This document shows, in pieces, positions 800-62,602 of a stretch of 64,000 nucleotides of DNA. Source of the DNA: Thermomicrobiales bacterium. Lineage in GTDB: Bacteria > Chloroflexota > Chloroflexia > Thermomicrobiales > UBA6265. Location of the stretch: contig JAXLWU010000005.1 in the NCBI GenBank assembly GCA_046328335.1, positions 156,675 through 220,674 on the forward strand, in the 5' to 3' direction. The position numbers and the translations under genes are program-made. The notes below the pieces were generated by a model. The model worked only from the letters and a program-made list of their open reading frames with translations. It was not told where the DNA came from and did not search any database. Every line of letters begins with the position of its first letter. The stretch's first letter is position 1.

Positions 800-2673
800 T
801 CAGATGCTCTGGACAGGTTCTCCCTTGAACAGCAGGAGCACGGCATGAGGCGGCAGAACCAGATCGATTGCGCCGTCGGACGCCAACTGGTCTCCAAGTA
901 ATTCACTGTTACGGGATTCTCGTATCCCACCGGAACCGAGGCAAACGTGCCAGGTTCCAGCGGGAAGCGGTAGGGACACGCGCGTCCTGGCGTTTCCAAA
1001 CGCGAGCATGACCGCCGCTTCCTCGCCCTCGCGCCCGGCGTGCCGCAGCAGCACACGCTCGTGGTCCCAGGCCGTGACCGTGTTCGCGGCCTCGGGATCG
1101 CGCAGCACCGGGAGTTCCCGGCGCAGACGGAGGAGATCGCGGTACCAAGCGAAGAGCGGCGCGTGGGCATCGTCTCGATACCGCTCCAGGGCGAGGATCG
1201 AGCGGGTCAACGTCTCCGGCGCGGCGGGGTCGGGCGCGGCATCGTCCCAATTAAAACCGCCGAACGCCTCGCGACGCCCCTTGCGGACGGCCTCGATCAG
1301 GTCGGGATCGCCATGATCGACGACGAAGAGGAACGGGTTCGTCTCCCCATACTCTTCCCCCATGAACAGGAGCGGCACAAAGGGGGAAAGGATCACCGCG
1401 GCCGCGGCCAGTTTCTGCTGCTCCGGCGAGATGCGGTGTCCGAGGCGCTCGCCGCCGGGGCGGTTGCCGACCTGATCGTGGTTCTGGTTGAAGACGATGA
1501 ACTGGCTGCGCCGCGCGGGCGACGGGGAGCGTCCGAAGCGGCGCTGGCGGCGGGTGGCGTACTCCCCGGTGTAGACGAAGGCCTGCCGCATCGCTTTGGC
1601 CATGTGCGCGAAGTCGCCGAAGTCGGCGGCATAGGCGCTTTCCTCGCCGATGAGTTGCGCTTCGAGCGCGTGGCAGAAATCATCGGCCCACTGGGCATCG
1701 AGGGCGTAGCCGCCGATATCGCGCGGGAGGATGAGTTTGGGATCGTTGAGATCGCTCTCGGCGACGAAATGCACCGTGCGCCCCAGGTGCGCCGCGCGGG
1801 AATGTACCGCCGCGGCCAGTTCCGCCAGAAAGGGCTGCGCTCGGGGATCGTAGATCTCGTGCACGGCGTCGAGGCGAAAACCGTCGATGCGGTACTCCTC
1901 CAGCCACATCAGGGCGTTGTCGATGAAGAAGGCGCGGACCTCGTCGCTGTGGGGACCATCGAAGTTGATGGCGTCGCCCCAGGGGGTGCGGTAATGGCTC
2001 GTCTGATAGGGACCGAAACGGTGGAAGACGCTCCCCTCCGGGCCGAAGTGGTTGTAGACCACATCGAGGATGACCGTCAGACCGGCGGCATGGCTGGCGT
2101 CGACCAGACGGCGCAGCCCGTTCGGACCACCGTAGGAGTGCTGCGCGGCGTAGGGGAAGACGCCGTCGTATCCCCAGTTGCGCGCGCCAGGGAACTGCGC
2201 GATCGGCATGATCTCGATGGTTGTGACCCCGAGATCACGCAGATAGGGCAGATGGGGAATGACCGCTTCGAACGTGCCCTCCGGAGTGAAGGAACCGACG
2301 TGCAACTCGTAAATGACGGCATCGCGCAGCAAGGGAACATGCCAGTCATCGACCGCCGAGCGAAGTCGCAAGGATCGACCACCGCCGACGGGCCGTGCAC
2401 GCCTTCCGGTTGCGAGCGCGAGGCGGGATCGGCCAGCAGATCGCCATCATCCAGCCGAAGGTGATAGCGCGTTCCCGCTTTCGCGCCTGGCAGATACCCG
2501 GAGTAGTACCCGCGATGCTCCGCCGCGAGCGCCGCTTCCTGGTGCGAGCCGGCATCCTCGGTGTAGACGACGGTGACCGCGTCGGCATTGGGCGCCCAGA
2601 CCCGTGCCTGTACGCCGTCGGCCAGGACCTCGACCCCGACCGCTCGTCTTCGTGCTCCGGTTCGCTCCGACAT
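800..2673 (-). pseudogene. treZ: Malto-oligosyltrehalose trehalohydrolase (GH13), interrupted by a 1-nt frameshift
   Basis: ORF 800..2371 holds the GH13 core (YELHVGSFT, DVVYNHFGPEG, GFRLDAVH). ORF 2077..2673 holds the N-terminal domain (VWAPNADAVTVVY...SRSQPEGVHGPSAVVDP) in another frame. The span is 1874 nt, not a multiple of 3. The junction lies near 2345..2372. Confidence 0.8.
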
Positions 2674-2765
2674 GGTCCGTGATCCTCATCGCGATACACG
2701 AGCGGCCCGGCAGCCGTTGTCGGTGCCGGCTGCCGGGCAAAACGGACGTGTGCTGACGAGGAGTG

Positions 2766-3463: not shown

Positions 3464-4948
3464 GTGAGCGGGATACGTTGGGATGATCGCGCCGGCAGGC
3501 CGGGAGTAACCTGGTCGCGCCGGCAGGTGTTGCAGGGCACGCTCGGTGGCGCGGCGCTGCTCGGGGGGGCAGTACGCGGGCAAGCCGCTCAGGCGCAGTT
3601 GGCGACGCCGGTGGCGAGTGTCCCGCCGCGGGACGACGGGACGCCCGGCCCTGTCGCGCCCGCTGAGGCCCCGATCGATCACATCATGGTCATCTTTCTC
3701 GAGAACCGCTCCTTCGATCATCTCTACGGTGGATTCCCGGGAGCGAACGGGTTGCAGAGCCCTGGCGCGCTGATTCCGCAGACCGATCGCGATGGGCGGC
3801 CCTATACGGTCTTGCCGCCAGTGCTCGATGCCAGCAAGAACCCGCCGGTCCCCGACCCCCGCTTTCCCCCGGACCTGCCCAATCAGCCGTTCCCGATCGC
3901 GCCCTATATGGCGCTGGATGTGAGCGATGCCAACCCCGGTCACCGCTACTACAACCACATTCTCCAGATCAACGGCGGCCGTCTCGATCGCTACGTCGCC
4001 TGGTCCGATTCCGGGGGGCTGGCGATGGGCTATCACGACACCAGCAAGCTGCCGCTCTATCCCTATGCGCGGGAATTCACCCTGCTCGATCACTGCTTCA
4101 CCGGCGCGCTGGGCGGGAGCATGCTCAATCATATCTGGCTGATCAGTGCCGCCACCCCGGTCTGGCCGGGCGCGCCCGCCGAGCGCATCGCCGTTCCCGT
4201 CTACGACGAGTTTGGCCGCCTGATCGGACTCGAAAAGGACGGAGACGTCACGCCCGATGGCTACTGCGTCAATAACGCCCAGCCGTTCTTTCCTCCCTAT
4301 CTGGCGGATACGCCGGTCGCCGAGCGCCTGCCGCCGCAAGTCATGGCGACCATCGGCGACCGGCTGAGCGATGCCGGGGTCTCCTGGGGCTGGTTCGGCG
4401 GAGGGTGGGATGACGCCGTCGCCGGCAATCCTCCGCCGACCTTTCAATTTCATCACCACCCGTTCGTCTTCTTTGCCCGCTACGCTGAGGGGATGCCGGG
4501 ACGCGAGCATCTGCGGGACGAAACGGAGTTCGCCGACGCTGTCGCGCGGGGGACGCTGCCCGCGGTGTCGTTCGTCAAGCCACTCGGCAAGTTCACCGAG
4601 CACGCGGGTTACGCCTCGGTCGCGGCGAGCGAGCAGCACGCGGTCGAACTGATCGAGGCGGTGATGGCCTCATCGCTGTGGGAGCGATCGGCCATCATCC
4701 TGACCTACGACGACTTCGGCGGCTGGTTCGATCACGTGGCCCCGCCCCGGATCGATCGGTGGGGTCCGGGCGGCCGTGTGCCCACCATCGTCGTCTCGCC
4801 CTACGCGCGCAAGGGGCATATCGATGCCACGCCTTACGACCACACCTCGATCCTGGCGTTCATCTCCTGGCGCTTCGGTCTGCCGCCGTTGACCAACCGC
4901 GATGCGAACGCCTACAACCTGCTGGCGGCGTTCGATTTCCCGCGATAA
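3464..4948 (+). CDS. Phosphoesterase family protein (phospholipase C / acid phosphatase AcpA-like) with twin-arginine signal
   Basis: 494-aa intact ORF with a Tat-like N-terminus (SRRQVLQGTLGGAALLGG). IDHIMVIFLENRSFDHLYGGFPGANG is typical of the phosphoesterase family. Confidence 0.85.
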   Translation: MSGIRWDDRAGRPGVTWSRRQVLQGTLGGAALLGGAVRGQAAQAQLATPVASVPPRDDGTPGPVAPAEAPIDHIMVIFLENRSFDHLYGGFPGANGLQSPGALIPQTDRDGRPYTVLPPVLDASKNPPVPDPRFPPDLPNQPFPIAPYMALDVSDANPGHRYYNHILQINGGRLDRYVAWSDSGGLAMGYHDTSKLPLYPYAREFTLLDHCFTGALGGSMLNHIWLISAATPVWPGAPAERIAVPVYDEFGRLIGLEKDGDVTPDGYCVNNAQPFFPPYLADTPVAERLPPQVMATIGDRLSDAGVSWGWFGGGWDDAVAGNPPPTFQFHHHPFVFFARYAEGMPGREHLRDETEFADAVARGTLPAVSFVKPLGKFTEHAGYASVAASEQHAVELIEAVMASSLWERSAIILTYDDFGGWFDHVAPPRIDRWGPGGRVPTIVVSPYARKGHIDATPYDHTSILAFISWRFGLPPLTNRDANAYNLLAAFDFPR

Positions 4949-26190: not shown

Positions 26191-26220
26191 GAAGAGCCAC
26201 GCCGTTGAGCGTGGCTCTTC
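26191..26220. terminator. Hairpin between convergent genes
   Basis: GAAGAGCCACGC-CGTTGA-GCGTGGCTCTTC, followed on the + strand by GCTGCTTTGTGT. Confidence 0.45.
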
Positions 26221-26268
26221 GCTGCTTTGTGTCAGGTTGTTTGACGGGTGAAGGGTGCTGCGCCGACC

Positions 26269-37008: not shown

Positions 37009-37072
37009 TCGCGGCGAGGTCAGCGCGCCAAACGTAACCGCTCAAGAAGAACGTGTACAGGAAGAGGTTGCC

Positions 37073-37405: not shown

Positions 37406-37494
37406 GCAAGACGGCGAGATGGCAAGAAACAGTAGAGCGGTACTGCCCTCTTGCAACTCCCGGCTTCGTCCTTGCCGTCTCGCCGTCTTGCCGT
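37406..37494. repeat. GGCAAGACGG-type low-complexity inverted repeat
   Basis: GGCAAGACGGCGAGATGGCAAG pairs with CTTGCCGTCTCGCCGTCTTGCC about 45 nt downstream. Related GGCAAG(A/G)CGG motifs fill 59858..60055. Confidence 0.45.
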
Positions 37495-37523
37495 CTCTAC
37501 TCTTCTCCTCGAGGAACGCATCG

Positions 37524-45467: not shown

Positions 45468-46427
45468 GTCGCGCCCGCTCTTCGGAGTGGGTGATGATTG
45501 AAACGATTCAACCCTGGGCACTCCCAAGATCCACGTCAGGTTCCTTTCTGCCTATGCGGCAGAGAAATCACATCGCGCACGCTCAGCGAGCGTGCGACAA
45601 TCCCCGCTCGGCAAATCCCAAGCCGAGGGAAACCATGAACAGCAACGGACTGATCGCGACGGGCTACTTGGTCGCGTGCCTGCTCATCACGCCATTGATT
45701 GTTTCGGCACAGCAATCCACCGCGGTAGAACGTCTTCCCCAAGCCGGGGACCTGCCGGCAGGGTGGGTGGTCTCCAGCGCGGAGCAGACCGCGCCCTCCG
45801 ATGTCACGGCTATCAATGATCTGGCAGAGGCGGTGTACCTCGGCCCCAACGGGAGCCGCGCGTGGGTTCTGTTGGCGCAAGTCAACGCGGGCCCGGCTGC
45901 GGCGCGTACGTCGTGGGAACTGATGGGCAACTCGTTCGACAACCTCCGTGGCACGTTTGACGCGGACTACAACAGCGAGCGAGAACTGCGCGAGATGCCG
46001 ATGCCAAAGGTCGCGGGCTGCGCGGACATGCGCCGGATGCGCGGGACGGACAACGTCATCGACAGTATCGACGTTGGGGTGTCGTTGTGCGCGGCTGACC
46101 CCGACAGCCTCATCCTGGCGTACGTTTCCGGTGCCTTCGGCGACCTGTCGGGGCCGAGGGCATCTGACGCGCTCATCGGTCTTGTGCTGAGCGACGCGCC
46201 GGGCGCCACGCCAGAGGCCGGCTAGCGTTCGCAAGCGATGCCGGGTGCCGCTTACCCGCGCTTCTAGCCGTTGTCCGACCCCGCCTCGCCCCAATCGAGC
46301 GATTCCAGCACGTCGCACCCGCTCTTCGGAGTGGGTGGGGATTGAAACATCATCCGGGGTGGCATCGTGACCAGCAGGTTGCGGGTTGCACTCACTCCTC
46401 GGGCTGGAGAGAAGTTGATCTCGAAAC
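45468..46427 (+). CRISPR. Degenerate orphan CRISPR-like array: R1, 807-nt insert, R2, 36-nt spacer, degenerate R3
   Basis: R1 45468..45504 is GTCGCGCCCGCTCTTCGGAGTGGGTGATGATTGAAAC. R2 46312..46348 is GTCGCACCCGCTCTTCGGAGTGGGTGGGGATTGAAAC (34/37 identical). R3 46385..46427 is GTTGCACTCACTCCTCGGGCTGGAGAGAAGTTGATCTCGAAAC. The stem is CCCGCTC/GAGTGGG with a TTCG loop, and the GTCGC...ATTGAAAC ends resemble type I-C-style repeats. No cas genes are in the window. Confidence 0.5.
45635..46225 (+). CDS. Secreted hypothetical protein encoded between CRISPR-like repeats R1 and R2
   Basis: ATG follows GAGGGA. Signal peptide MNSNGLIATGYLVACLLITPLIVSAQQ. 196 aa with two Cys and no recognised family. Confidence 0.6.
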   Translation: MNSNGLIATGYLVACLLITPLIVSAQQSTAVERLPQAGDLPAGWVVSSAEQTAPSDVTAINDLAEAVYLGPNGSRAWVLLAQVNAGPAAARTSWELMGNSFDNLRGTFDADYNSERELREMPMPKVAGCADMRRMRGTDNVIDSIDVGVSLCAADPDSLILAYVSGAFGDLSGPRASDALIGLVLSDAPGATPEAG

Positions 46428-46470
46428 AGCAGACGGCAGGTAATGCGTGCCGCCGCTTCCGGCTGTGGCG

Positions 46471-46740
46471 TTAGCGCAACTCGAGATGAAGTGACCGGCC
46501 GACCGCGGCCGCCGCGCGCTGCATTGTTTCGAGTTGCACCGTGTCGTGCGTGGGGTCGAGCAGGCGATCGCGTTGCGTGCGGCTGGTGTGCATTCGTCGC
46601 GCCATCGCGCGTTTCGATAGCCCCTGGGCGGTCATTTCCTGTTGCATCTGCCAGGCCAAAACCCGCTTGATCGCGTGCGTGGTCGCCTCGTCGCGAATCC
46701 CCTCTTCGGCGACTGAAGAGCCCTGATAGCAGTTGGCCAT
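46471..46740 (-). CDS. XRE-family HTH antitoxin-like protein (no cognate toxin seen)
   Basis: MANCYQGSS...AIKRVLAWQMQQEMTAQGLSKRAMARRMHTSRTQRDRLLDPTHDTVQLETMQRAAAAVGRSLHLELR is a typical HigA/XRE antidote layout. Confidence 0.7.
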   Translation of the reverse strand: MANCYQGSSVAEEGIRDEATTHAIKRVLAWQMQQEMTAQGLSKRAMARRMHTSRTQRDRLLDPTHDTVQLETMQRAAAAVGRSLHLELR

Positions 46741-46832
46741 CGGCCGAGAACTCCTCCGCGTGGATTCGGATTCGTGCAGGAAAGCGGGAATACAATACTG
46801 AGTGTTAGTGTGCAGGTGGTCATGAGCAGGCA

Positions 46833-47063
46833 ATGCCGCCCAAGATTCGTCAGTTGAAATCGGATCTTCGGAAGGCAGGTTTCGTCCTCTCGCTCAACCG
46901 AGGCAAAGAAAGCCATACCGTATGGGTTCATCCTTGCACAGGAACATCGGTAACGGTATCGGGCGGCGACGGTGACGATGCGAAGCGGTATCAGGAGTCG
47001 GATGTTCGCAACGCAATCGTACACGCGGTCGAGTCGCTCCGCGCCAAGGACGTCAATGCATGA
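46833..47063 (+). CDS. hicA: HicA-family mRNA interferase toxin
   Basis: MPPKIRQLKSDLRKAGFVLSLNRGKESHTVWVHP... is a YcfA/HicA pattern. Confidence 0.85.
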   Translation: MPPKIRQLKSDLRKAGFVLSLNRGKESHTVWVHPCTGTSVTVSGGDGDDAKRYQESDVRNAIVHAVESLRAKDVNA

Positions 47064-47551
47064 GCCGATCACCAGACTATCCCGATGTGACGGAAGCGGA
47101 ACTCGCGGCGGCGCATCGCTACAGTATGGCCATTGACTGGTCGCCCGACGACGAGGCATTCATCGCCAGTTTCCCGGATGTCCCGTTCGTCCGTGTTCAT
47201 GGCCGCACTCGGGAAGAAGCAGTGGAGCGCGGCGAGGAACTGATCGTTGCCTGGTTGACCGCGCTGCACGATGCGGGATACCCCGTCACGCCGCCAGACA
47301 GGACCGCGCGGACGAGAGCCTTCGAGTCGCCGCCCTATGACGCGGCGGCCGTCCGCCGGATTCGCCGCACCCTGGATGTGTCGCAGCAGGTTTTCGCTTC
47401 GTTGCTCAATGTGAAGGTCACCACCGTGCGGTCGTGGGAACAGGGCCAGCGTAGGCCAGACGGCGCGTCAACGCGGCTGCTCGACCTGGCGGAGCATCAT
47501 CCGGAGATATTGCTGGCATTGAGCAGGCCGCGCGAAGGACGGATCGCCTGA
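47060..47551 (+). CDS. hicB: HicB-family antitoxin with C-terminal XRE HTH
   Basis: ATGA overlap with hicA. HicB fold: YSMAIDWSPDDEAFIASFPDVPFVRVHGRTREEAVERGEELIVAWL. HTH: IRRIRRTLDVSQQVFASLLNVKVTTVRSWEQGQRRP. Confidence 0.85.
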   Translation: MSRSPDYPDVTEAELAAAHRYSMAIDWSPDDEAFIASFPDVPFVRVHGRTREEAVERGEELIVAWLTALHDAGYPVTPPDRTARTRAFESPPYDAAAVRRIRRTLDVSQQVFASLLNVKVTTVRSWEQGQRRPDGASTRLLDLAEHHPEILLALSRPREGRIA

Positions 47552-47606
47552 CCCATCGATGCTCGCGGCATTGGCGCTGCCCATGTTTTCTCGTGAATGG
47601 GGCAAC

Positions 47607-48481
47607 TCACTCACCGAGCACCGCGAGGTGCAGTTGACCCAGGCGTTTCGGGTCGGCGATGGCCTCGATGCGGGCGATCTTGCCGTGCGCGATGGTGAAG
47701 GCGAGCACCATCATCATCCGTCCGCGCGGCGCCACGATCACCCCGACCGCGCCATCGATCAGCGCTGGTTGCGCCTCCCGCGCCCCGCCCCGCGCCGTGC
47801 GCGTGGCCACCGCTTCCGCGCCGCGGATATCGTGCGGGGCATCGAGCCGTCCGGCGGGATAGGTCCTCAGCACCACATCGGGATCGAGAATGGCGAGCAG
47901 CGCGGCGAAATCGCCGGCCCGCGCCGCGGCGAGAAAGGCGTCCACCAGGCGCCGCTGCTGGGACCGCGCCACCGCATGCGTGGGGTCGGTGCCCCGCACG
48001 CGACGCCGCGCCCGGCTCGCCAACTGCCGGGTCGCTGCCGGTGAGCGCTGGACGATCGGCGCGATGTCAGCGAAGGGCACCGCGAACAGATCGTGCAGGA
48101 CGAAGGCGATCCGCTCGGCCGGGGTGAGCGTCTCGAGGACGACCAGCATCGCCAGTCCCACCGCTTCCGCCAGCAGCGCTTCCTGCTCGGGATCGCCGCC
48201 ATCCGTGTCGCCCCTGACGGATGCGGCCGCCACGGTCCCCAGCGATTCTTCGCGGCGCGCCTTGCGCACCTCGCGTTGCCGAGCCCGAGACAGACCCGGG
48301 CCACCACCGTAGTCAGCCGCTCAGGTTCTCCACCGCGCTCACGTCCGTCCGGCTCAGGCGCAGCCAGGTTTCCTGCACCGCATCGCTGTCCGGCCTCGCT
48401 CAGCGAGCCAAGCATGCGATAGGCCACGCCGCGCAGGTGTTCCTGGTTCGCCGAACCGCCACGCCACGCTCGTTCCGTCAT
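47607..48481 (-). pseudogene. ECF sigma factor (SigJ-like with SnoaL-like C-terminus), at least 3 frameshifts
   Basis: N-terminus MTERAW...HLRGVAYRMLGSLSEA. The expected DSDAVQETWLRLSRTDVSAVENLSG is in another frame. Reading returns to LTTVVARVCL, then switches to RKARREESLG...LTPAERIAFVLHDLFAVPFADIAPIVQRSPAATRQLASRARRRV. Breaks lie near 48391, 48316 and 48270..48290. Confidence 0.8.
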
Positions 48482-48630
48482 CGGTCACAATCCTCATCGC
48501 GATTCGTCATGGTAGTGACGCATCCGCCGCGCTGGATGTGACGGACATCCGGCGAGAAGATCGGGGCCACGGCGCGGCGGTGGTGGGAGGGTTGCATCTC
48601 GGTCGTGGCCGCAATCGAGAAAGGCTCGAG

Positions 48631-49090
48631 ATGATGACACTGCCCGCCCGCTCCTTGAGGAGCGCACGCGAGATACCCGCACGCTGGAGCAGCATGATGT
48701 CGATGCCTGGGTGGCCACCGCCGACGCCGGCAAGGGGGCTCCCTACCTGATCCCGCTCTCGTTTTCCTGGGACGGCCAAACCCTGCTCTTCGCGACGCCA
48801 CGTAACAGCGTGACTGGCCGCAACATCCGCGAGACCGGAAAGGTCCTGGTCTCGGTCTCGGCGCCACCCGCGACGTCGTTCTGATCGAAGGCACTGCGCA
48901 GCTGCTCTCGGTGACGTATTTGCTTGGCCCGGAGGATGTGTTCGCCGCGCGGACTGGGTTCGATCCGCGCCAACTTCTCCCAACCGTACCTCTACTTCCG
49001 GGTCGCGCCGCGGCGCATCCAGGCCTGGCAAGAGGAAACGAACTGACCGGCCATGGCTTCATGCGCGATTACCGCTGGCTGGTGGACTGA
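48631..49090 (+). pseudogene. Pyridoxamine 5'-phosphate oxidase (PPOX)-family protein, about 4 frameshifts
   Basis: The pieces LLEERTRDTRTLEQHDVDAWVATADAGKGAPYLIPLSFSWDGQTLLFATPRNSVTGRNIRETGKV, TRDVVLIEGTAQLL, SQPYLYFRVAPRRIQAWQEE and NELTGHGFMRDYRWLVD lie in different frames. One break is at AAA 49036..49038. Confidence 0.7.
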
Positions 49091-50213
49091 TCGCGGTTCC
49101 GCGCGGATCGGTCAGGACGACAAGGCGAAAACCGTAGTCGATTGAAGACCTCGCCGGGGGCGCAGCACGGTGGTGGGGAAATCCGGGTGGTGCGGCGAGT
49201 TTGGAAGTGCTGCGTCTCCAGGGCGATGCCATCGCCCTGGCGATAGGCCTCGCCCGCTGGAGCCGGCGAACGACCCGTCGAGGAAATTGCCGGTGACCCG
49301 GCACGCCCGGCTCGGTCGTCGAGACCGTCAGGGTGCACCGCTGCTGGGGTGATGGAGCCGACGCCCTCGATCAGCGAGGTCTCCGCTTCGCGGTCGAAGA
49401 CGAAATTGTGGTCGTATCCTCTGCTCATCAATAGTTGCGGATTCGTTCCGACGGATGCGGGCGCCGATCGCCATTGGCGTGGTGAAGTCGAACGGCGTCC
49501 CGCCATCGCCGGCCAGGTCCTCGGTCGGAATCCGGCGCCCGGCATCGACCGGGGTGTAGCGGCCGGCGGCGAGCCAGAGGACGTGATCTTCGATGCTGCC
49601 GATCCCTCCCCGCCAGATTCCAGTAGGCGTGATTGGTCAGGTTGAGAATCGGGTTTGCCGGTCGGTTTCGGCGCGGTAGTCGATCGCGAGCCTGTTCTCC
49701 TCGTCGAGGCGATAGGTCACCGACGTGCGCAACGCGCCGGGATACCCTTCTCGCCGTCCGGGCTGGTCCGGGTGAGTGGACGCCAGCGGAGTCACTGTCG
49801 TGGACCTCGTCCGCGTCCCACACGAATTTGTCGAAGCCGCGCAAAACCGCCGTGCAGGTGGTTGTCGCCGACGTTGCGGGCCATACAGGTTTCGCCATCG
49901 AGGGTGAAGCGGCCACCGGCGAGGCGTTGGCGTACCGCCCGGTGATGCAGCCGAAGAAGGGCGAATTGTTGCGGCGATAGCCGGCGAGATCGCCAAAGCC
50001 GAGGGCGACGTTCGCCAGGGTGCCAGCGCGGTCCGGCGCCCACACCGCCCGGATGACGCCGCCGTAGGTGAGGATTTCCACGCGCAAACCGTAGCGGTTC
50101 GACAGGTGATAGTTGGTGACCGGTTGCCCATCGAATGCGCCAAACGGTTCGCGCCCGATCTCGACCACGGTGCTTCTTCCTCTTCCTCGAAAGCGCCTTC
50201 GCATGGACCCCAT
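49059..50213 (-). pseudogene. galM: Aldose 1-epimerase (galactose mutarotase), many frameshifts
   Basis: Fragments are scattered over three frames: FGAFDGQPVTNYHLSNRYGLRVEILTYGGVIRAVWAPDRAG, GGRFTLDGET, NHLHGG, GFDKFVWDA, EGYPGALRTSVTYRLDEENRLAIDYRAETDR, NLTNHAYWNLAG and GYDHNFVFD. Confidence 0.75.
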
Positions 50214-50229
50214 TGTCCCACCGAGCCGG

Positions 50230-50718
50230 CAATCCCTCGACCGGTGTGCCCACGCCGAAGTCCGTTGGCCGCCAGCCAGCCGGCGGGAACTTCCAGAGCG
50301 TAGGCGGACAGCCGGTGAGAAATAGTGCGCCAGGTCAGCGTCGGCGGTGCCCGCCGGTTCCGGGCAGAGCCTGCTCGGCGGCGCCCTGAATGGCGCCGTT
50401 CAATCCAGATGATATCGAGGCAGAAGCGCATGTTCTTCATCCAGAACGAGAGGGGTTGCGGCCGATCGAAGACGAAGAGCATGCCAGCGCCAGGCGCCAA
50501 CCCATCCCGCTCACCCAGCCCCGCGCCCTGCTGGCGGGATCGGCGGCGATCTCCACCGTCAGCGGCACGCCACCGACCAGGATCTTGTCCACCGGCAACT
50601 CGCTCTCCTGCCGCGCGTTGACAGGTCCCGTCCTCACGGTCATGCCGCCCAGCATCGCGAGCGCGAGCGCCGTCACCAGCACGCCGAAGGTCATGCCCCG
50701 CGTCCTTTCCATCGCCAA
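50230..50718 (-). pseudogene. DUF192-family protein, frameshifted
   Basis: Signal/TM MTFGVLVTALALAMLGGM and VGGVPLTVEIAADPASRARG are in one frame. GMLFVFDRPQPLSFWMKNMRFCLDIIWI...YALEVPAGWLAANGL is in another. The 3' boundary is approximate. Confidence 0.65.
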
Positions 50719-50822
50719 CGCCCCAGCCGATTACGCCAGCAGGTCCTCGCCAGCCAGCCGCGCGGCCAGCGCCAGCAACGCCGCCGCGCAGGCAGGAAAC
50801 GCCGTTGAGAGTCAGATCGGTT

Positions 50823-51573
50823 TCATCGATTGGCTTCGCGGGCGTTTCCGTTGCCGAGCACGCCCACCCGCAGCGTCGCTACGCCATGGGCGCGCATCTC
50901 GCGCAGGGCGCGGAAGGCATCGACGTCCGTCACATCGTCGCCGAAGAAGACGACGCTGCGCAATCCGAGATCGTGGACCAGATCGCGGATGGCGCTGCCC
51001 TTGTTGACGGCGAGATTCCTACGCAGTTCGAAGATCATCCGCCCGGAGGTGACGCGCAGACCGTGCCGGGCGGCGGTCTCTCGCACGAACGGTTTGCAAC
51101 GCCTGCGCCGCGAGTGGATCGTCCGCCAGGCGATAGTGAATGGTCCCGGCGATGCCCTTGTCCTCGATCGAGCCAGGCGGGATTGCCGAACGCCTGCGCC
51201 GCGGTGGCGATCTCGGCCAGCGCGGCGGCGATGGCCGGTTGCGCTCGCGGCGGCCACCGGGTGGGTCCACGCTTCGCCGCGGACGATCCGTTCCAGGCCG
51301 TGATTGCCGACGTAAATCAGTTCGGGCAGTTCGACCATCGCCGCGCCAGCGGCGGAGCGCGCCCGGAGACTGGCGACGGCCGCCAGACGCGCCGCCAGCC
51401 GTTGCAGCGCCGCCCGCGCGCCGGGATCGACCATTGCCTCCGCGGGCGTCGGGGCGATCGGGTTGATGGTGCCATCGATGTCGGTGACCACCGCCGAGGG
51501 TGTCTGGCCGCAGCACTTCCAGGCAGGCGGTGACGACCGCGTCGATGTCGGGAGTGGCTGCCCGTTTCGACAT
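50823..51573 (-). pseudogene. otsB: Trehalose-phosphatase (HAD-IIB), frameshifted
   Basis: MSKRAATPDIDAVVTACLEVLRPDTLG, VVTDIDGTINPIAPTPAEAMVDPGARAALQRLA...LIYVGNHGLE, IEDKGIAGTIHYRLADDP and FVRETAARHGLRVTSGRMIFELRRNLAVNKGSAIRDLV...VVFFGDDVTDVDAF are spread over at least 3 frames. Confidence 0.7.
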
Positions 51574-51752
51574 CGTCACGTTCACCCTCGTCCTGATAGG
51601 AATAGATACCAGGCCGCGCCGCTGATGAACAAATCCTGCACGCCATCCTGACTGGCAATAGCGAGGTGATAGACGAGTCCCTGGGCACATTGGGCGGGCC
51701 GAACGGATCGCAGCGAGGCGTTCAGGCGGCACGGTCGCTCCCGTGGATGGGT

Positions 51753-52296
51753 TCAGTTCGGCATCGTCGTTGTAACCGGCACGCGCCAGGCCCGGTGCAG
51801 TTCCTGGAAGTTGACCTGATCCAGCGGGAGTACCGGTACCGCGGCGGGATCGATCTCGGCTGGTTCGCTCAGACCGGTATCGCTGTAGAAGAACGACTGC
51901 GCCGACTGGCAACATCCTCGCCAGCGGAACGCGGGTTCCAGCGCGCAGCCGACTGCATGGTGACCAGTCGCGCATCGGGCCGCCAGGCAAGGGCCGTTTC
52001 GATGGAGGATGCTCGCACGCCGCCGGCCCATTCGTCGCCGACGGCGGTGATCGCCTCACGCGCAACGGCCATCGTTGCAGCGCTGTGGCTCCGGCAAGCC
52101 GGGCAATGCCGCGGCGCTGGCCGGTGTCGGGGTGGGATCGGCGGCGGCGATGCGCGGGGGAGGGTACTCGAACCCTGGAGCAACCGGTCAGCGGCAACAC
52201 CGCGAGCGCCCCGGCCAGAACCAGCAACCGAGCGGAGCGGCGGTCTCGATCGATTGGCGAGCGGACGGTCACCAGGGGCATTCCTCGGCGGGGCAC
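51753..52296 (-). pseudogene. Probable lipoprotein gene in fragments (function unknown)
   Basis: A lipobox-like ARLLVLAGALAVLPLTGCS is in one frame. Plausible protein-like stretches (ATMAVAREAITAVGDEWAGG...; SFFYSDTGLSEPAEIDPAAVPVLPLDQVNFQELH) are in others. This is a weak call. Confidence 0.3.
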
Positions 52297-52453
52297 CGCT
52301 GGAATCTACCACGCCGTCCGGCATCTGGCGCATCGTCACCTGGATGTGGCGGACGGAACCATCGACGGTGGCAAGCACGGACGCTCAATTGTGATACCTC
52401 AGCCAGGAATGTGCGGACAAAGGGCCACCGGAAACGCCTGGGAGAAGGGGAAA

Positions 52454-52483
52454 GCCGAGGTCCCTCCTCCGTCGGGACGACAC
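52454..52483. repeat. Family B half unit U5
   Basis: GCCGAGGTCCCTCCTCCGTCGGGACGACAC, identical to the right arm of U2. Confidence 0.6.
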
Positions 52484-52652
52484 GCGTGCCGTTTGGTGCT
52501 CCCGGCGGAGGCGGTGGCCGCGGCACGATCTCGCTCGCGTGCGAATGGGAGTGGTGGTAGCAGAAACCCCGCGTCCGGCATGCCGGACGCGGGGTCGTGA
52601 GTGTCACGTCATCGGGTGCGCGGTGCGTCACCCACCGTGGAATGTCAGGCGC

Positions 52653-52865
52653 CTAGCGGGTGCTGCGCTCGACGTCCCGCTTGAGATCGTCGACGCCTTC
52701 CTTGATATCGCCCCAGGCTTGCTTCGCCTTGCCCTTGGCCTCATCGGCCATGCCTTCGGCTTTCGTACGGTCGTCGCCGGTCAGATCGCCCCAAGCCTGC
52801 TTGCCCTTGCCTTTGATCTCATCGACGGTCCCCTCGATGCGGTCGCTGGTGCCTCGGTCGGCCAT
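52653..52865 (-). CDS. csbD: CsbD-family stress protein
   Basis: MADRGTSDRIEGTVDEIKGKGKQAWGDLTGDDRTKAEGMADEAKGKAKQAWGDIKEG. Confidence 0.85.
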   Translation of the reverse strand: MADRGTSDRIEGTVDEIKGKGKQAWGDLTGDDRTKAEGMADEAKGKAKQAWGDIKEGVDDLKRDVERSTR

Positions 52866-53003
52866 CGTGCCGTCTCCTTTCGTCACAATCCATGACCCAT
52901 CATCCAACGGGTCTATGCATGACTAGGCATGTTCTGTGCCATGGAAGACGATGAGCAGCCGCCACGAGTTCGACCGCGCCGCGTGCTACGCCGGGAGTGG
53001 GTC

Positions 53004-53213
53004 CTACTCCGAGCGGCGGTCGATCTCCTCCTTGAAATCGGCGATCCCTTCCTTGATATCGCCCCAGGTCTGCTCGGCCTTGCCTTTCAACTGATCGACC
53101 ATGCCTTCGGCCCTCATCTTGTCGTCGTCGGCGAGATCGCCCCACGCCTCCTTGGCGCGGCCCTTCATCTCGTCGACCGACCCTTCGATGTGCTCTTTCG
53201 TGCCGTCGCTCAT
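53004..53213 (-). CDS. csbD: CsbD-family stress protein (paralog)
   Basis: MSDGTKEHIEGSVDEMKGRAKEAWGDLADDDKMRAEGMVDQLKGKAEQTWGDIKEG. Confidence 0.85.
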   Translation of the reverse strand: MSDGTKEHIEGSVDEMKGRAKEAWGDLADDDKMRAEGMVDQLKGKAEQTWGDIKEGIADFKEEIDRRSE

Positions 53214-53405
53214 CTTCGCCTGCTCCTTTCGGGATGGTCCATTGCCGACCGTGCGGCGGGGGTCCCGGCACTGGTCAACCTGTACCCACCGCCTGATCAC
53301 TCTACCGCATTGGACTCCGGAAGGGTTGGTCGCTGACGACCGGTCGGTCGCGTTCTGTTACGATCGCGGTCCGGTCCCGGTCTCGGTCCCCTGGAGGCGG
53401 CCCAA

Positions 53406-54500
53406 TTGGATGCGCCGCGGGCACTTTTTCCCCTTACGATGGCGCTCGTGGTCGCGCTGGGCGCGGCGGTGGGTTTCGGCTGGGCTTGGTATCGCCTGCT
53501 CGTCGATCGGGGGCGGTTACTCCTGCGCCTGGAAGACCTCGCTCCGGCGGCGGCACCTGCCGGGTCCCCGGGGCATCCCCCTGGAGCGTTTCTCAACGAC
53601 TTCGCGCTGCCAGTGCGCGATGGCCGGATCGTGACCCTGTCCGAACTGGCGGGAACGGTGCTGGTGGTCGTGGTGCAGGCGAACTGCCTCTACTCCCGCG
53701 CCTTTGCGGCGGAACTGCGGCGGCTCCCCAGGGATGGTTCCTCACCGCTGCCGGTCCTGATCCTCAGCGGCGTCATCGACAATCCCGAGGAGCTGACGCC
53801 ATTCTCCGATCTGCCGGGACTGCTCCTGCTGGATCAGTCCGGGTTGACCGCCAGGCTGCTGCGCATCGCGGCCACGCCCGCGGGATACCAGAGTGTCAAT
53901 CGCCGTACTCTCGGTCCGCGCCTCGTCGGCCCGGTTGCCCTGATTGCCGCCGCGAGGGGCGAGGCAGGCATGACCGACGAGCAACGGGCGCCGCTGGCGG
54001 TGACGCCGGTTGCTCCTGACGATGGGGCCTGGCGGAACCGGAAGCCGATGCGTCCCGGCGAAATGGTTCCGGACGTCACACGTTCCGGGTTGGGTGGCGA
54101 TGACTGGTCGCCACGGAGCGAACTCGGATCACCCTGGTTCCTTCTTCTGATCGATTCGTTGTGTCCACCATGCCAGCGTGTGCTTGCCGATCTGGAAGGA
54201 CCGTTCCCCGCCCGTCTCGTCATTGCCAGTCGTGGCGAGATGCCGGACCATGACCGCGCGGCCGCGTTGCAGCTGGGGGCGCGGGTGGTCACGCAACAGC
54301 GCCCCGCGTTGGCGCGGGCGCTCGGCGTCGTGCAGACGCCGGCTGTCTATGCGATCGATGCCGGAGGACGGATCGTGGCGGGACCAGCGATTGGTTACGC
54401 GGCGGCACGCGAGTTGCTGGCGGATTATGCTTCTCCGCACGGCATTCCCTTGCCAGCGGTCATTGGCACGCACGATAGAGGAGGACGCGGTAATGGGTAG
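53406..54500 (+). CDS. Membrane-anchored tandem thioredoxin-fold protein (TlpA/ResA-like thiol-disulfide oxidoreductase)
   Basis: N-terminal TM MALVVALGAAVGFGWAWY. The first Trx-like half has a degenerate NCLYS. The second has an intact CPPC (FLLLIDSLCPPCQRVLADL). The stop overlaps the P5 start (ATGGGTAG). Confidence 0.7.
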   Translation: MDAPRALFPLTMALVVALGAAVGFGWAWYRLLVDRGRLLLRLEDLAPAAAPAGSPGHPPGAFLNDFALPVRDGRIVTLSELAGTVLVVVVQANCLYSRAFAAELRRLPRDGSSPLPVLILSGVIDNPEELTPFSDLPGLLLLDQSGLTARLLRIAATPAGYQSVNRRTLGPRLVGPVALIAAARGEAGMTDEQRAPLAVTPVAPDDGAWRNRKPMRPGEMVPDVTRSGLGGDDWSPRSELGSPWFLLLIDSLCPPCQRVLADLEGPFPARLVIASRGEMPDHDRAAALQLGARVVTQQRPALARALGVVQTPAVYAIDAGGRIVAGPAIGYAAARELLADYASPHGIPLPAVIGTHDRGGRGNG

Positions 54501-57023: not shown

Positions 57024-57542
57024 GTGGACAGGATAGATTTCGATCGCGTCGCCGCCGTTTTCGCTCAGGCGCAAGATCGCCGGGGTGTGCTGCGCCTGCT
57101 GGGCGCGGCGATTGCCAGTGGTGGGACGGTGACGGTGTTGGCATCGACCGAAATCGACGTGAAGGCCAAGAAAAAGAAGCATCGCAAGCCGACCTGCAAG
57201 GATGGCCGCAAGAATGGCTCCGAGACTGATGTCGATTGCGGCGGGTCGTGTCCGCGCTGCAAGGTGACGAAAACGTGCCAGAACCGGGACGACTGCGTCA
57301 CCGCTCTCTGCGAGGGCGGCGTCTGCATCGAGCCGGAGAACGCCACCGATTGCGGTCTCGATGCCGGTGGCGGGAACTGCGCCACCCGCGTCAACAGCGA
57401 CAACGTCAGGATCTGCACCAAGATCAATGGCCGCTTCTTCCTCGACGGGACCTGCCAGGATCGATGCCGCGGCGAAGAGCAGTGCGTGCTGCCGGTGAGC
57501 GGTGGAGTGGAGTGCGTGCTGCCGTGTGGCGTGGCGGCCTGA
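57024..57542 (+). CDS. Secreted Cys-rich protein, paralog P6
   Basis: GTG follows AAAGGAG. N-terminus (M)DRIDFDRVAAVFAQAQDRRGVLRLLGAAIASGG, then KAKKKKHRKPTCKDGRKNG, then ETDVDCGGSCPRCKVTKTCQNRDDCVTALCEGGVC... Confidence 0.75.
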   Translation: MDRIDFDRVAAVFAQAQDRRGVLRLLGAAIASGGTVTVLASTEIDVKAKKKKHRKPTCKDGRKNGSETDVDCGGSCPRCKVTKTCQNRDDCVTALCEGGVCIEPENATDCGLDAGGGNCATRVNSDNVRICTKINGRFFLDGTCQDRCRGEEQCVLPVSGGVECVLPCGVAA

Positions 57543-57701
57543 GTCGCGGTGTCTGCCCACCTGCCAAACAGAGTAAGCTGATTCAAGCAAGAATGCAGAC
57601 GATGATCCCCGCTGGATGATAGCGAGATTCCTGCGGTCCAGGACTGTCGTGCAACGGTTGCACGTTCGATAATCGACTTTACAGAAACCATGCCAAAAAC
57701 C

Positions 57702-57797
57702 TTGACGAATTGAGCGAATCTGAGTACCATAAATGCAACTCCCCCTGCGGCTTTCCCCGCAGGGCCACGAGCCGCCCCATAAGGGCGGCTCTTTTTC
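57702..57797 (+). promoter_or_regulatory. Leader L2: TTGACG-17 nt-TACCAT promoter, hairpin 1, terminator hairpin 2 with T5, directly upstream of NYN copy 2
   Basis: -35 at 57702..57707 and -10 at 57725..57730. Hairpin 1 is CCCTGCGG-CTTTC-CCGCAGGG (57743..57764). Hairpin 2 is GAGCCGCCC-CATAA-GGGCGGCTC (57769..57791), followed by TTTTT. Confidence 0.5.
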
Positions 57798-57809
57798 GTG
57801 TCGGACGAG

Positions 57810-58481
57810 GTGAGAGCGGGCACCTATACGTACTATGACGGGTTCAATTTCTACTATCGACTGTTCAAGAATCGTCGGCGAACTCACAAATTGCCTGCGA
57901 ATCTCAAGTGGTTGGATCTACTGAAGCTGAGTCAATCTCTTGCTCCAGGACAGACGGTTGACTGGGTTGGTTATTTCACCGCATTTGTTCGGCAGAATCC
58001 TCTTGATCCAGATCAACACGTTCGTCAACGGGCTTACATTGAGGCATTGAGGACGATTCCTTGTCTAGAGATCGTTGAAGGGAAGTTCCAGCCGACAACA
58101 AAGCGTGGGATACCGGTTGGCTGTGCAATCTGCGGTGCGAGCGCAGTCTCTCCGATCGAATTCAATACCTTCGAAGAGAAGGGATCGGATGTGAACCTGG
58201 CTGCAAGGTTGGTTCGCGACGCAGCGCTAGGCAAGTTCTCCGCAGCATTGGTGATCTCAAATGACAGTGATCTTGCGGAGGCAATTCGAATTGCCACCGA
58301 CGATTTTGGTCGAGTTGTCCACGTCCTTAGCCCAGATATCAACGTGAACAATTCCTTGACGAAGGTCGCATCAAGCGCCAAACCACTTGACGTGAAGTTG
58401 CTGAAGCGATGCCAGTTCCCGCCGACACTGCGGAACGCGGCGGGCATTGTCATCAGCAGGCCTGTTGCCTGGTCGCGTTAG
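57810..58481 (+). CDS. NYN-domain (PIN-like ribonuclease fold) protein, copy 2
   Basis: (V)RAGTYTYYDGFNFYYRLFKN...LKWLDLLKLSQ...EEKGSDVNLAARLVRDAALGKFSAALVISNDSDLAEAIRIA. Visibly lower GC. The start could be GTG 57798 or 57810; 57810 matches the geometry of copy 1. Confidence 0.85.
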   Translation: MRAGTYTYYDGFNFYYRLFKNRRRTHKLPANLKWLDLLKLSQSLAPGQTVDWVGYFTAFVRQNPLDPDQHVRQRAYIEALRTIPCLEIVEGKFQPTTKRGIPVGCAICGASAVSPIEFNTFEEKGSDVNLAARLVRDAALGKFSAALVISNDSDLAEAIRIATDDFGRVVHVLSPDINVNNSLTKVASSAKPLDVKLLKRCQFPPTLRNAAGIVISRPVAWSR

Positions 58482-58756
58482 CAGGGCTACGGGAAAAAGT
58501 CTGCGCGACTTCGGTACTGACCTCAAACAGAGTGACTCTTGTGTCCAGGTCGAACAATTGTGCGCGGGGACCAGTCTGCAGGTCGTACCGGATTTCGGGG
58601 AAGAGGCGGGGATCGGGGAATCGGTACGGTACAATGCAAAACTGACCGGACGCAGCGGTGATCCGGTGGTGCGTGCCGTCCCAATGGCACGGAACGTGAG
58701 TTCTGACAGGAAGCGCTGGCCACGGGCGCAGCCCGCGGCGCACGAGAGGCGAACGC

Positions 58757-59857
58757 ATGGCGACCACCAGGGGCCAGACCCGGAAGAGAAAGGCGTCGTC
58801 GTCAGACGACGGGCCCGTAGCGGCGTCGCCGCGGACATCCCCCGCGTCGCGCAACGGCGCTGACTCTCTCCCCCTCGGCAAGGACAAGATTCTCGATCTC
58901 TATCGTGAGATGAATGTGATCCGCCTCTTCGAGGACGCCGCCCAGCGCGGTTTCCGCACCGGGAAGGTCGGTGGCTACCTCCATCTCTACAGCGGTCAGG
59001 AAGCCGTCGCCACCGGGTTTCTGACCTGCTACCAGGAGAGCGACCGGGTCATCACCGCCTACCGCGACCATGCCCATGCCCTTCTTCTCGGCAGTCACCC
59101 GAACGCGGTGATGGCCGAGCTCTATGGCAAGGGCACCGGGCTGGTCAAGGGCAAGGGCGGCTCGATGCACCTGTTCGATGTCGAAAACGGCTTCTGGGGC
59201 GGGTACGGCATCGTCGGCGGGCATATTCCGCTCGGGGTCGGCATGGCCTATGCCCTGCGCTACCAGGGAACCGACGGCATCGTGCAACTCTATCTCGGCG
59301 ACGGCGCGATCCACAACGGCGCGTTCCACGAGGCGGCCAACCTGGCCGGGCTCTGGGGACGCGACGGCATGAATCCTACCCTCTTCATTCTCGAGAACAA
59401 CCGTTACGGGATGGGCACCAGCGTCGAACGCGCCACGGCGATGACCGATCTCTCGGCGAAGTTCGATTCCTACGGCATCGAGCACGAGGATGTCGACGGC
59501 ATGGACCTCTTCGCCGTGCTCGCAGTCGCGGAGCGGGCCATCGCCCGCGTGCGTGAAACCGGCAAGCCGTATGCCATCGAGGCGATCACCTACCGCATCG
59601 CGCCCCACGGCGCGGCCGACTTCCTGGAGCGCTACCGGAGCAAGGACGAGGTCGCGGAATGGCGGCAGCGCGATCCGATCGGAATTGTCGAGGCGCGCCT
59701 GATCGAGGCGGGGGTCGCGGACGACACGCTCGACGCGATCAAGGCGGAGGCGAAGGCGACGGTCGATGAAGCGGTCCGCTTCGCCGAGCAGAGCCCGGAA
59801 CCGCCGCTCGACGAGTTGTACACCGATGTCTACGCCGATACCGTGGTGACCGGGTGA
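58757..59857 (+). CDS. pdhA: Pyruvate (2-oxoacid) dehydrogenase E1 alpha subunit
   Basis: YRDHAH, GKGGSMH and the GDGAIHNGAFHEAANLA TPP-binding pattern. Confidence 0.9.
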   Translation: MATTRGQTRKRKASSSDDGPVAASPRTSPASRNGADSLPLGKDKILDLYREMNVIRLFEDAAQRGFRTGKVGGYLHLYSGQEAVATGFLTCYQESDRVITAYRDHAHALLLGSHPNAVMAELYGKGTGLVKGKGGSMHLFDVENGFWGGYGIVGGHIPLGVGMAYALRYQGTDGIVQLYLGDGAIHNGAFHEAANLAGLWGRDGMNPTLFILENNRYGMGTSVERATAMTDLSAKFDSYGIEHEDVDGMDLFAVLAVAERAIARVRETGKPYAIEAITYRIAPHGAADFLERYRSKDEVAEWRQRDPIGIVEARLIEAGVADDTLDAIKAEAKATVDEAVRFAEQSPEPPLDELYTDVYADTVVTG

Positions 59858-61249: not shown

Positions 61250-62602
61250 ATGCCGACCGTCATCATGCCCAAGATGGGCGACGCCATGGAAGAGGGCACG
61301 CTCCTCCGCTGGCTGAAACAGGTGGGCGATGAGGTCGCCGTGGGGGATCCGCTCGCGGAGATCGAGACGGACAAGGTTTCGCTCGAAATCGAGGCGACCG
61401 AGGCCGGGGTCCTGACCAAGACCTACGTCAATGAAGGGGCGGTGGTCCCGATCGGCAGCCCGATCGCCGCCATCGGTGAAGAGACGATCGCCGCGTCCGA
61501 GGAAGCGGCGACGGAACCGGAAGCCGTGCCAGTCGCGGCGGTCGTGGAACCAGTAGCCGCGCCGGTTTCGGCCGCTACCAACGGACGTGCCGCGCCCGAG
61601 GCGCCGGTCCCGGTTCCGGTGCCGGTGGTTGCCGCTCCTGTCGAGGTCGGCGCCGGTGAGCGGTTGCGCGCCTCGCCGCTGGTCAAGCGCCTCGCCGCCG
61701 AGCATGGGATCGATCTGCGCGGCATCGTCGGCAGCGGCCCCGGTGGTCGCATCGTGCGCGACGATATCGCCGCGCTGCTCACCGGCGCGCCACGCGTCGC
61801 GCCTGATCCCGCAGCGGTTCCGGCCCCGGCTCCTGCACCCGCGCCGCAGCCAGCGCAACCGGCGCCAGCGCCACAACCCGCGCCGGTCGCGGCGGCGCCA
61901 GCGGCGCGTCAACCTGGTGTTCCGCGCGAATTGAGCACCATTCGCAAGACGATCGGCCGCCGCATGGCGGAATCGATGCAAACGGCGCCGCACTTCTACG
62001 TCACGGTCGAGGTCGACATGGCCCCGGCCGCGGCGCTGCGCGAGCAGATCAACGCCCAGGCCCCAGACGACGCCGCGAAGATCTCGTTCAACGACCTGAT
62101 CCTCAAGGCCGCCGCGCTGGCGCTGCGGGAATTTCCGAATCTCAATTCGGCGTTGCAGGGGGACCAGATCGTCGAGTTCCCGAATATCGACATCAACATC
62201 GCCGTCGCCGTCGAGGGTGGCTTGATCGCGCCGTTCATACCCGATGCCGATCAGAAGGGGCTGCTGACGATCGCTCGGATGAGCAAGGATCTCATCGCAC
62301 GGGCGAGGCATGGCGGACTGTTGCCCGCCGAATACCAGGGGGGCACCTTCACGATCTCCAACCTCGGCATGTACGACGTCGAGGAGTTCATCGCCATCAT
62401 CAACCCGCCACAGGCGGCGATCCTGGCGATTGCCTCGATCAAGGATGTACCAGTGGTGGCCGATGGCCAGATCGTCCCGGGCAAGCGGATGAACATCACC
62501 CTCTCGTCCGACCATCGCGTCACCGATGGCGCCGAAGCGGCCCGCTACCTGCAGGTGGTCAAGCGTTACCTGGAGAACCCGCTGACGATCGCGTTTTCCT
62601 GA
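61250..62602 (+). CDS. pdhC: Dihydrolipoamide acetyltransferase E2
   Basis: Lipoyl domain (LAEIETDKVSLEIEA), Ala/Pro linkers, a subunit-binding domain (ASPLVKRLAAEHGIDLRGIVGSGPGGRIV), and a catalytic domain (SSDHRVTDGA). Confidence 0.9.
   Translation: MPTVIMPKMGDAMEEGTLLRWLKQVGDEVAVGDPLAEIETDKVSLEIEATEAGVLTKTYVNEGAVVPIGSPIAAIGEETIAASEEAATEPEAVPVAAVVEPVAAPVSAATNGRAAPEAPVPVPVPVVAAPVEVGAGERLRASPLVKRLAAEHGIDLRGIVGSGPGGRIVRDDIAALLTGAPRVAPDPAAVPAPAPAPAPQPAQPAPAPQPAPVAAAPAARQPGVPRELSTIRKTIGRRMAESMQTAPHFYVTVEVDMAPAAALREQINAQAPDDAAKISFNDLILKAAALALREFPNLNSALQGDQIVEFPNIDINIAVAVEGGLIAPFIPDADQKGLLTIARMSKDLIARARHGGLLPAEYQGGTFTISNLGMYDVEEFIAIINPPQAAILAIASIKDVPVVADGQIVPGKRMNITLSSDHRVTDGAEAARYLQVVKRYLENPLTIAFS

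Follow-up and report, generated by a model that had tools for sequence, protein, structure and literature searches.

A 4-kb block of six frame-disrupted genes in a Thermomicrobiales contig, very probably uncorrected sequence error rather than gene decay

The present analysis concerns six consecutive genes that can be read only by hopping between reading frames, encoding an ECF sigma factor, a PPOX-like protein, galM, a DUF192 protein, otsB and a lipoprotein. They lie in a 64-kb stretch (the window) of a 255,083-nt contig from a GenBank MAG of a Thermomicrobiales bacterium, and the question they raise is whether the genes are decaying in the organism or whether the deposited sequence is at fault. 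The patterns detected favor the second answer, with a probability of about 0.9: the organism's own copies of the six genes are unbroken, and over approximately 4 kb of the contig sequencing or consensus errors were left uncorrected.

Extent of the damaged block

To segment the reading frames, a codon-usage HMM with seven states was trained on the long ORFs of the window itself; it was adopted in place of a Viterbi decoder with free frameshifts, which chained adjacent genes together. Frame segments are 500–2,250 nt long nearly throughout the window, whereas 48271–51879 breaks into about 35 segments of 37–278 nt each. In a six-frame Pfam scan, successive parts of single domains landed in different frames; positions 3–60, 61–91 and 113–298 of the Aldose_epim profile were spread over three frames, and the Trehalose_PPase and DUF192 domains were likewise split. 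Together with frameshift-aware alignments these results bear out the description in the earlier note of consecutive frameshifted genes amid intact neighbors, with six genes affected, and of damage that is local and not uniform. The span originally given, 47607–52296, is right as to the existence of the block but begins too early, as damage starts at 48271 and the sigma gene is clean over 47607..48269. Position 48271 is the first difference from an independent contig (L082, Logan SRR26348421) and is preceded by 1,226 identical bases, so that the left boundary falls mid-gene, inside the sigma factor gene. On the right, the last detected frameshift is at 52173, and a second independent contig (L083, from ENA) is identical from 52376 onwards. 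No flanking repeats or IS elements able to explain a mis-join were found around the block.

Table 1. Features of the block and its flanks (positions in the window; frame changes are minimum counts)
Feature	Position	Strand	Remarks
Clean left flank: hicB and 3′ part of sigma gene	47045..48270	.	100% identical to L082
ECF sigma factor gene with SnoaL_2-like C-terminal domain	47607..48481	-	3 frame changes; Pfam Sigma70_r4_2 and SnoaL_2
Error-dense stretch, core of the probable artefact	48271..52175	.	Right limit somewhere in 52175-52375
PPOX/PNPOx-like gene	48631..49090	+	3 frame changes; PNPOx_N in a single + frame only
galM (aldose 1-epimerase)	49112..50168	-	12 frame changes; Aldose_epim profile
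DUF192 gene	50211..50694	-	6 frame changes; Pfam DUF192
Clean island in block	50523..50792	.	270 nt, identical to L084
otsB (trehalose-6-phosphate phosphatase)	50732..51573	-	8 frame changes; Pfam Trehalose_PPase
Conserved lipoprotein gene, lipobox LTGC	51582..52296	-	At least 9 frame changes
Clean right flank: intergenic DNA and two CsbD genes	52376..53178	.	100% identical to L083

Frame changes were counted as minima from protein-guided, frameshift-aware alignments and sum to at least 41 over the six genes. The lesions reported earlier are real, but their estimated number, roughly 15 or more, was several times too low. There were no in-frame stop codons in about 1,400 reconstructed codons, and reconstructed proteins were 89–96% identical to intact orthologues. 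The examples are galM, whose stop-free reconstructed frame matches 315 of 354 residues of the intact 354-aa orthologue P0001, and the DUF192 gene, which after frame correction matches an intact 162-aa gene at 155/162 residues; both orthologues are on a further independent contig (L084, ENA ERZ773282).

Within the sigma gene the C-terminal 220 codons are clean and the three frame changes, at ~48270, 48314–48322 and 48388–48390, fall in the N-terminal 70-odd codons, where L082 stays in frame and agrees with homologues (ENLSGWLTTVVARVCLDQLRVRKARREE). A scan of genome contigs with the sigma fragment gave, among the matches listed, ECF sigma genes of 50–62% identity from many phyla, none of them syntenic. 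The PPOX-like gene is indeed frameshifted, as had been claimed, although its strand had to be corrected to plus. Over the stretch for which a reference exists it changes frame at ~48850, 48951–48980 and 49036, with one further change at ~48660 read by eye, and 112 of 134 residues are identical to the partial intact gene on L084. Two individual lesions singled out beforehand were found as described, namely AAA versus AAAA at 49036–49038 and a CAGC/GCTG tandem shortened by 4 nt at ~48312. For otsB, 200 of 273 aligned residues (73%) match the orthologue P0121. The lipoprotein gene had been offered as a weaker sixth candidate and is a real gene, homologous over three frames (144/241 residues identical) to a 259-aa gene directly upstream of otsB on a contig from a relative (L087); searches of Pfam and NCBIfam placed it in no family.

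The rest of the window consists of gene-sized uninterrupted frames save for isolated 1-nt frameshifts, about two or three in all. One is in a DUF892 gene at ~3046, and the frameshift reported in treZ was also recovered, as a single 1-nt event at ~2360–2375; a PfkB gene may hold a third. Frame switches at 35528, 37000–37500, 43012, 54475 and 61800 were considered as further frameshifts and rejected, being normal gene junctions or a Pro/Ala linker.

Comparison with independent contigs

L082 is identical to the window over the 1,226 nt of the left flank, and past 48270 there are 3 indels and several substitutions between the two within 45 nt. L083 is identical over 803 nt of the right flank. On L084 the DUF192 and galM genes are uninterrupted and a segment of the PPOX-like gene is in frame, and the alignment of this contig to 48690..50792 of the window (2.1 kb) showed 51 indel events and 56 mismatches; L084, at only about 2.3x coverage, stems from a slightly different strain, with clean patches differing by up to ~1%, and a minority of these 107 differences are real polymorphisms. 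Relative to L084 the window had 31 deletions and 20 insertions; 37 of the 51 indels were of 1 nt, and the longest was 6 nt. Only 12 of the 51 were located in runs of three or more bases, which speaks against replication slippage at repeats, one of the processes proposed earlier. More than half of the mismatches (29/56) lay within 5 nt of a gap, and the 27 isolated ones were divided into 15 non-synonymous, 11 synonymous and 1 between genes.

The indel to mismatch ratio in the block is thus about 0.9, whereas natural divergence within this lineage gives about 0.07, the baseline being ~78 mismatches and 6 gap columns for L083, 211 mismatches and 15 gap openings for L086, and 9 mismatches without gaps for L081. 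Over 2.1 kb of the block 95 difference events were counted, against none over the 2,029 nt of flank (Fisher p = 5e-29), and the density in the block, wherever a reference is available, is about 4.5 events per 100 nt. Near-identical references cover only part of the block, and 50793..52375 was judged solely against relatives of ~60–73% protein identity. Two further contigs, L085 and L086, were rejected as references for error profiling, as they are only 72–80% identical to the window and lack synteny with it to the left of the CsbD genes. An exact 30-mer scan of JGI metagenome contigs gave zero matches, and no literature was found on SRR26348421 or ERZ773282.

Artefact, decay or hypermutation

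The block is best explained as an artefact and not as gene decay because independent assemblies from the same population carry the covered genes intact or in frame. An error level of about 5%, with 1-nt indels making up about half of the events, matches raw long-read sequence without polishing, and we infer from it the following history. The contig may have been built from, or bridged by, long reads and then polished, and polishing or consensus depth would have failed from 48271 to approximately 52175–52375, possibly because the path was supported by no more than one or two long reads, or by very patchy short-read coverage, in a strain-variable region. The 270-nt island free of errors fits patchy polishing. 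Gene callers would then have cut each gene into out-of-frame pieces, some of which were deposited as proteins, while the real locus would be an ordinary operon of lipoprotein, otsB, DUF192 and galM genes beside the PPOX-like and ECF sigma genes. Counting against an artefact is that a single patch of 4 kb this poor is unusual in a contig otherwise clean over about 60 kb.

An alternative explanation could be a genuine cluster of pseudogenes, in which six adjacent genes including otsB and galM are under relaxed selection and which, with treZ, would suggest loss of trehalose metabolism. All six frames are truly disrupted in the deposited sequence, treZ is frameshifted elsewhere in the window, and the isolated mismatches lack a synonymous bias; these 27 mismatches are compatible with relaxed selection and also with random error, and the split of 15 non-synonymous to 11 synonymous is likewise predicted by random sequencing error. 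Decay of this kind is nevertheless very improbable. Contigs from the same population keep DUF192 and galM intact and the sigma and PPOX-like segments in frame, and the lesions of the window are absent from both L082 and L084, which are independent samples of the lineage. Against the 95 events in 2.1 kb of the block, the flanks have none even at synonymous sites, which neutral decay could not have spared. The indel to mismatch ratio is far from that of natural divergence here, and nonsense codons, indels longer than 6 nt and IS elements are all absent from the block. Damage begins partway through the sigma gene, a starting point that selection on whole genes would not yield, and each gene has 3–12 shifts although one suffices for inactivation. 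The earlier note had left two readings side by side: the locally poor assembly is retained, on the strength of the intact independent contigs, the ratio of about 0.9, the identical flanks and the mid-gene boundary, and slippage under relaxed selection is not. The theme of decay in the trehalose pathway (treZ, otsB) plus galM, also raised there, is unsupported.

Less probable again is a mutational shower, in which a single episode of error-prone repair or replication in the sampled lineage scattered small indels and substitutions over 4 kb. The sharp boundaries, independent of genes, and the fairly uniform density of events within the tract speak for it, but the spectrum is that of sequencing error, 270 nt inside the tract are clean, and a clone with six inactivated genes would need to dominate the binned population. 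To our knowledge, no process known in bacteria alters about 5% of a 4-kb tract with indels as half of the changes; if true, this would be a very recent burst in one uncultured Thermomicrobiales strain, pointing to an unknown process of tract-wise hypermutation in bacteria. Programmed ribosomal frameshifting, transcriptional slippage or phase variation at simple repeats is scarcely credible. A few lesions do sit at short homopolymers or tandems (AAA versus AAAA near 49036, the CAGC tandem near 48312), but the 3–12 shifts per gene run in both directions and no gene has one defined slippery site or repeat tract. Runs of three or more bases contain only 12 of the 51 indels, and the orthologues are plain uninterrupted ORFs.

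Consequences and known systems

Given an artefact, the biological significance of the block is essentially nil, and its genes are almost certainly ordinary and intact in the organism. Nothing here indicates that the trehalose pathway has been lost, and no inference on loss of trehalose or galactose metabolism is warranted. The consequences are for databases: public protein collections already hold frameshift-chimeric fragments from the block as if they were real proteins, for example MFN8591219.1, a 222-aa ‘trehalose-phosphatase’ deposited from the otsB ORF fragment 50823..51491 (P0127 being this ORF of the window), with a middle part of about 55 residues out of frame. Exact-protein look-ups returned no record for P0127, the 862-aa STAND/LuxR regulator, the second CsbD gene or the phosphoesterase (3464..4948). 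Completeness and pseudogene statistics of the MAG are distorted by the patch, and genome scans need a filter for such error patches; two signals work here, many HMM frame switches per kb and an indel to mismatch ratio near 1 against near-identical contigs.

The ordinary form of the locus may be seen in L087 (ENA ERZ25039586 contig_36683), from a Thermomicrobiales/Chloroflexota relative, where order and strand match 49112..52296 of the window. Its genes run lipoprotein, otsB, DUF192, galM, all full-length except DUF192, which is called at only 82 aa. Identity to the reconstructed window proteins is ~60% for the lipoprotein and, by BLASTP, 59–70% for galM and otsB; P0121, the closer otsB match above, comes from a different contig. 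With reductive pseudogene clusters of the Mycobacterium leprae type the block shares neighboring disrupted genes beside intact ones. In true pseudogenes nonsense codons and larger deletions occur beside numerous substitutions, the flanks diverge as well, and members of the lineage have the lesions in common. The block has none of these traits, whether mixed lesions, diverged flanks or sharing within the lineage. The closer likeness is to errors of long-read assemblies and MAGs, in which small indels dominate and genes fall into out-of-frame fragments revealed by intact orthologues, as here (PMC8103633; PMC12007338). Nanopore errors are mostly indels, and pseudogene counts in MAGs are inflated by them, worst at low coverage (PMC8103633; PMC12007338). 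Known errors of this type are worst where coverage or polishing is poor (PMC8103633; PMC12007338); unlike them, the errors here are gathered in one 4-kb patch at approximately the level of raw reads, presumably from a long-read platform.

Extent of the damaged stretch

The window has a G+C content of about 67%, and no tRNA or Rfam match was found in it. ORF listing and Pfam scans placed fragments of an ECF sigma factor (Sigma70_r4_2 and SnoaL_2), an aldose 1-epimerase, a DUF192 protein and a trehalose-phosphatase on the minus strand and a PNPOx-like gene on the plus strand, with successive parts of single Pfam profiles falling in different frames. A 7-state HMM (one state for each of the six frames and one for non-coding sequence; codon log-odds trained on 19 long window ORFs) returned gene-sized segments of 500–2,250 nt nearly throughout, and about 35 segments of 37–278 nt in 48271–51879, while neighboring genes showed full-length domain matches (Sulfatase 1–301/301, S-methyl_trans 1–283/283, 2-oxoacid_dh 8–230/232, and also the STAND-LuxR regulator). 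Because the short segments are confined to this stretch and the neighboring domains are complete, the earlier observation of a frameshifted gene block in otherwise intact surroundings stands, in sharper form, and the damage is local rather than uniform. The multi-gene frameshifting described for 47607–52296 holds, but its extent does not: the dirty stretch begins at 48271 and ends somewhere within 52175–52375, since the last frameshift was detected at 52173. None of the six frameshift-aware gene alignments contained an in-frame stop codon.

An HMM frame switch at 61801–61929 was rejected as a frameshift, being the Pro/Ala-rich linker that connects the E3-binding domain with the catalytic domain in an intact E2 acyltransferase gene (61250..62602). 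Three stretches called non-coding (25967–27542, 33152–33995 and 57538–58865), with lower G+C (0.55–0.63) and weak codon-usage signal, may hold foreign or atypical genes.

Features of the window, with minimum numbers of frame changes from protein-guided, frameshift-aware alignments and residues identical in the reconstructed frame
Feature	Position	Strand	Frame changes	Reference	Identical	Remark
STAND-type regulator	28975-31563	+				862 aa, intact; HTH_17, NB-ARC/AAA, TPR, GerE (LuxR) domains
HicB	47060..47551					= MFN8591213.1
Sigma factor			3	homologue from contig L002	185/292	
PPOX-like			at least 3	partial gene on L084	112/134	
galM			12	P0001 (L084)	315/354	
DUF192			6	gene on L084	155/162	
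otsB			8	homologue P0121	200/273	
222-aa ORF	50823..51491					identical to P0127 = GenBank MFN8591219.1, 'MAG: trehalose-phosphatase [Thermomicrobiales bacterium]', 255,083-nt contig
Lipoprotein			9	259-aa gene on L087	144/241	
CsbD gene	52653..52865	-				= MFN8591221.1

Independent copies and the error profile

Short contigs from other assemblies were located by exact-protein look-ups. L082 (Logan SRR26348421, 1,286 nt) is 100% identical to 47045..48270, and over the 45 nt beyond 48270 the two sequences are separated by three indels, of 3, 2 and 4 nt, along with a few substitutions; there the sigma gene is in frame on L082, reading ENLSGWLTTVVARVCLDQLRVRKARREE as in homologues, whereas the window requires two frame changes and a third at ~48390. 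On the other side L083 (ENA ERZ773282) is 100% identical to 52376..53178. The stitched galM protein best matched P0001, at 84% identity (next best 63%), and the contig of P0001, L084 (ERZ773282, 2,125 nt), carries intact galM (354 aa) and DUF192 (162 aa) genes together with the 3′ part of the PPOX-like gene, all in the gene order of the window. Comparison with these near-identical orthologous regions found galM and DUF192 intact and the covered sigma and PPOX-like segments in frame.

Aligned to 48690..50792, L084 yielded 51 indel events and 56 mismatches. Most indels were of 1 nt (37/51; longest 6 nt), 31 being deletions and 20 insertions in the window; only 12 lay within runs of 3 or more bases, and 29 of the mismatches were within 5 nt of a gap. 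The 95 difference events were spread fairly evenly over 48690 to 50522, followed by 270 nt (50523..50792) without any difference. Over 2,029 nt of flank there was no difference at all (p = 5e-29 by Fisher's test against the block). The indel:mismatch ratio is ~0.9 in the block versus ~0.07 for natural divergence in the same lineage, the latter taken from the diverged part of L083 (~78 mismatches, 6 gap columns) and from contigs L086 (211 mismatches, 15 gap openings) and L081 (9 mismatches, no gap).

Assembly error or gene decay

With a probability of roughly 0.9, the block is a locally poor assembly and not a real genomic feature, which was one of two explanations first offered; the ratio, the identical flanks and the intact genes on L084 all argue for it. 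The other, real decay through slippage under relaxed selection, is rejected. Neutral change of ~4.5% in the block would also alter silent sites in the flanks, yet these are identical to independent contigs; the lesions include neither nonsense codons nor larger deletions, few indels lie in base runs, and indels, relative to substitutions, are in ~13-fold excess. On its left side the damage begins within a gene, and same-population contigs have DUF192 and galM intact and the covered sigma and PPOX parts in frame.

The pattern of the block matches the appearance of uncorrected long-read sequence. Nanopore errors are dominated by indels, which give rise to false pseudogenes in MAGs, above all where coverage is low (PMC8103633), and gene-fragmenting errors are a recognized problem of long-read assemblies (PMC12007338). 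The window belongs to a metagenome-assembled genome, as three of its ORFs equal GenBank MAG proteins. A long-read or hybrid assembly may have escaped polishing over one patch, a scenario that the ~5% error level, the clean 270-nt island and the 255-kb contig would fit. Frameshifts make the deposited MFN8591219.1 a chimera in which ~55 residues in the middle are otsB translated out of frame.

Other lesions, neighboring sequence and a relative

Outside the block, treZ (minus strand, ~800..2685) has, as earlier noted, a frameshift, of 1 nt at ~2360–2375, with CBM_48 in open frame 2080..2685 and the alpha-amylase catalytic domain and DUF3459 in 803..2446. A DUF892 (YciE/YciF-like) gene (2689–3276, minus strand), absent from the earlier note, has a single frameshift at ~3040–3050 (~3046), in CTGGCTGG, profile positions 3–81 and 71–155 lying in different frames. 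A PfkB-family kinase gene (11571–12758, minus strand) has no stop codon near its expected end, ~11810: the domain ends at ~11855 and coding signal at ~11813, and another 240 nt of open frame extend into the next gene, encoding an Arg-rich tail. Loss of a stop codon, as a third isolated lesion, may account for this, or the two genes may truly overlap. These lesions look like ordinary residual consensus errors and do not support the suggested trehalose pathway decay.

Beyond 53178, identity of L083 to the window drops to ~80–85% (compared over 52376–53595), suggesting that a strain mosaic or recombination boundary lies within or beside the upstream member of two tandem minus-strand CsbD-family genes (52653–52865 and 53004–53213; 76% identical over 192 nt), both intact with clear AGGAG ribosome-binding sites. 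In L081 (ENA ERZ773282, 1–4672) the hicA-hicB-sigma segment adjoins a truncated ftsZ together with the remainder of a dcw-cluster end (YfiH, YggS, P5CR, YggT, DivIVA). Left of 46690 the window is unrelated to L081; G+C is 0.63 at 45.0–46.7 kb, and ORF 45536..46795 has no Pfam match. Judging from these sequences, either 46690 would mark the breakpoint of a rearrangement or insertion, or one of the two contigs would be a chimera.

The lipoprotein gene, formerly a weaker sixth candidate, is now accepted as damaged. No Pfam or NCBIfam family matched it, and its homology to the gene lying immediately upstream of otsB in L087, a more distant relative, is clear. There the order is lipoprotein, otsB, DUF192, galM, with lipoprotein, otsB and galM full-length and the DUF192 gene called at 82 aa.
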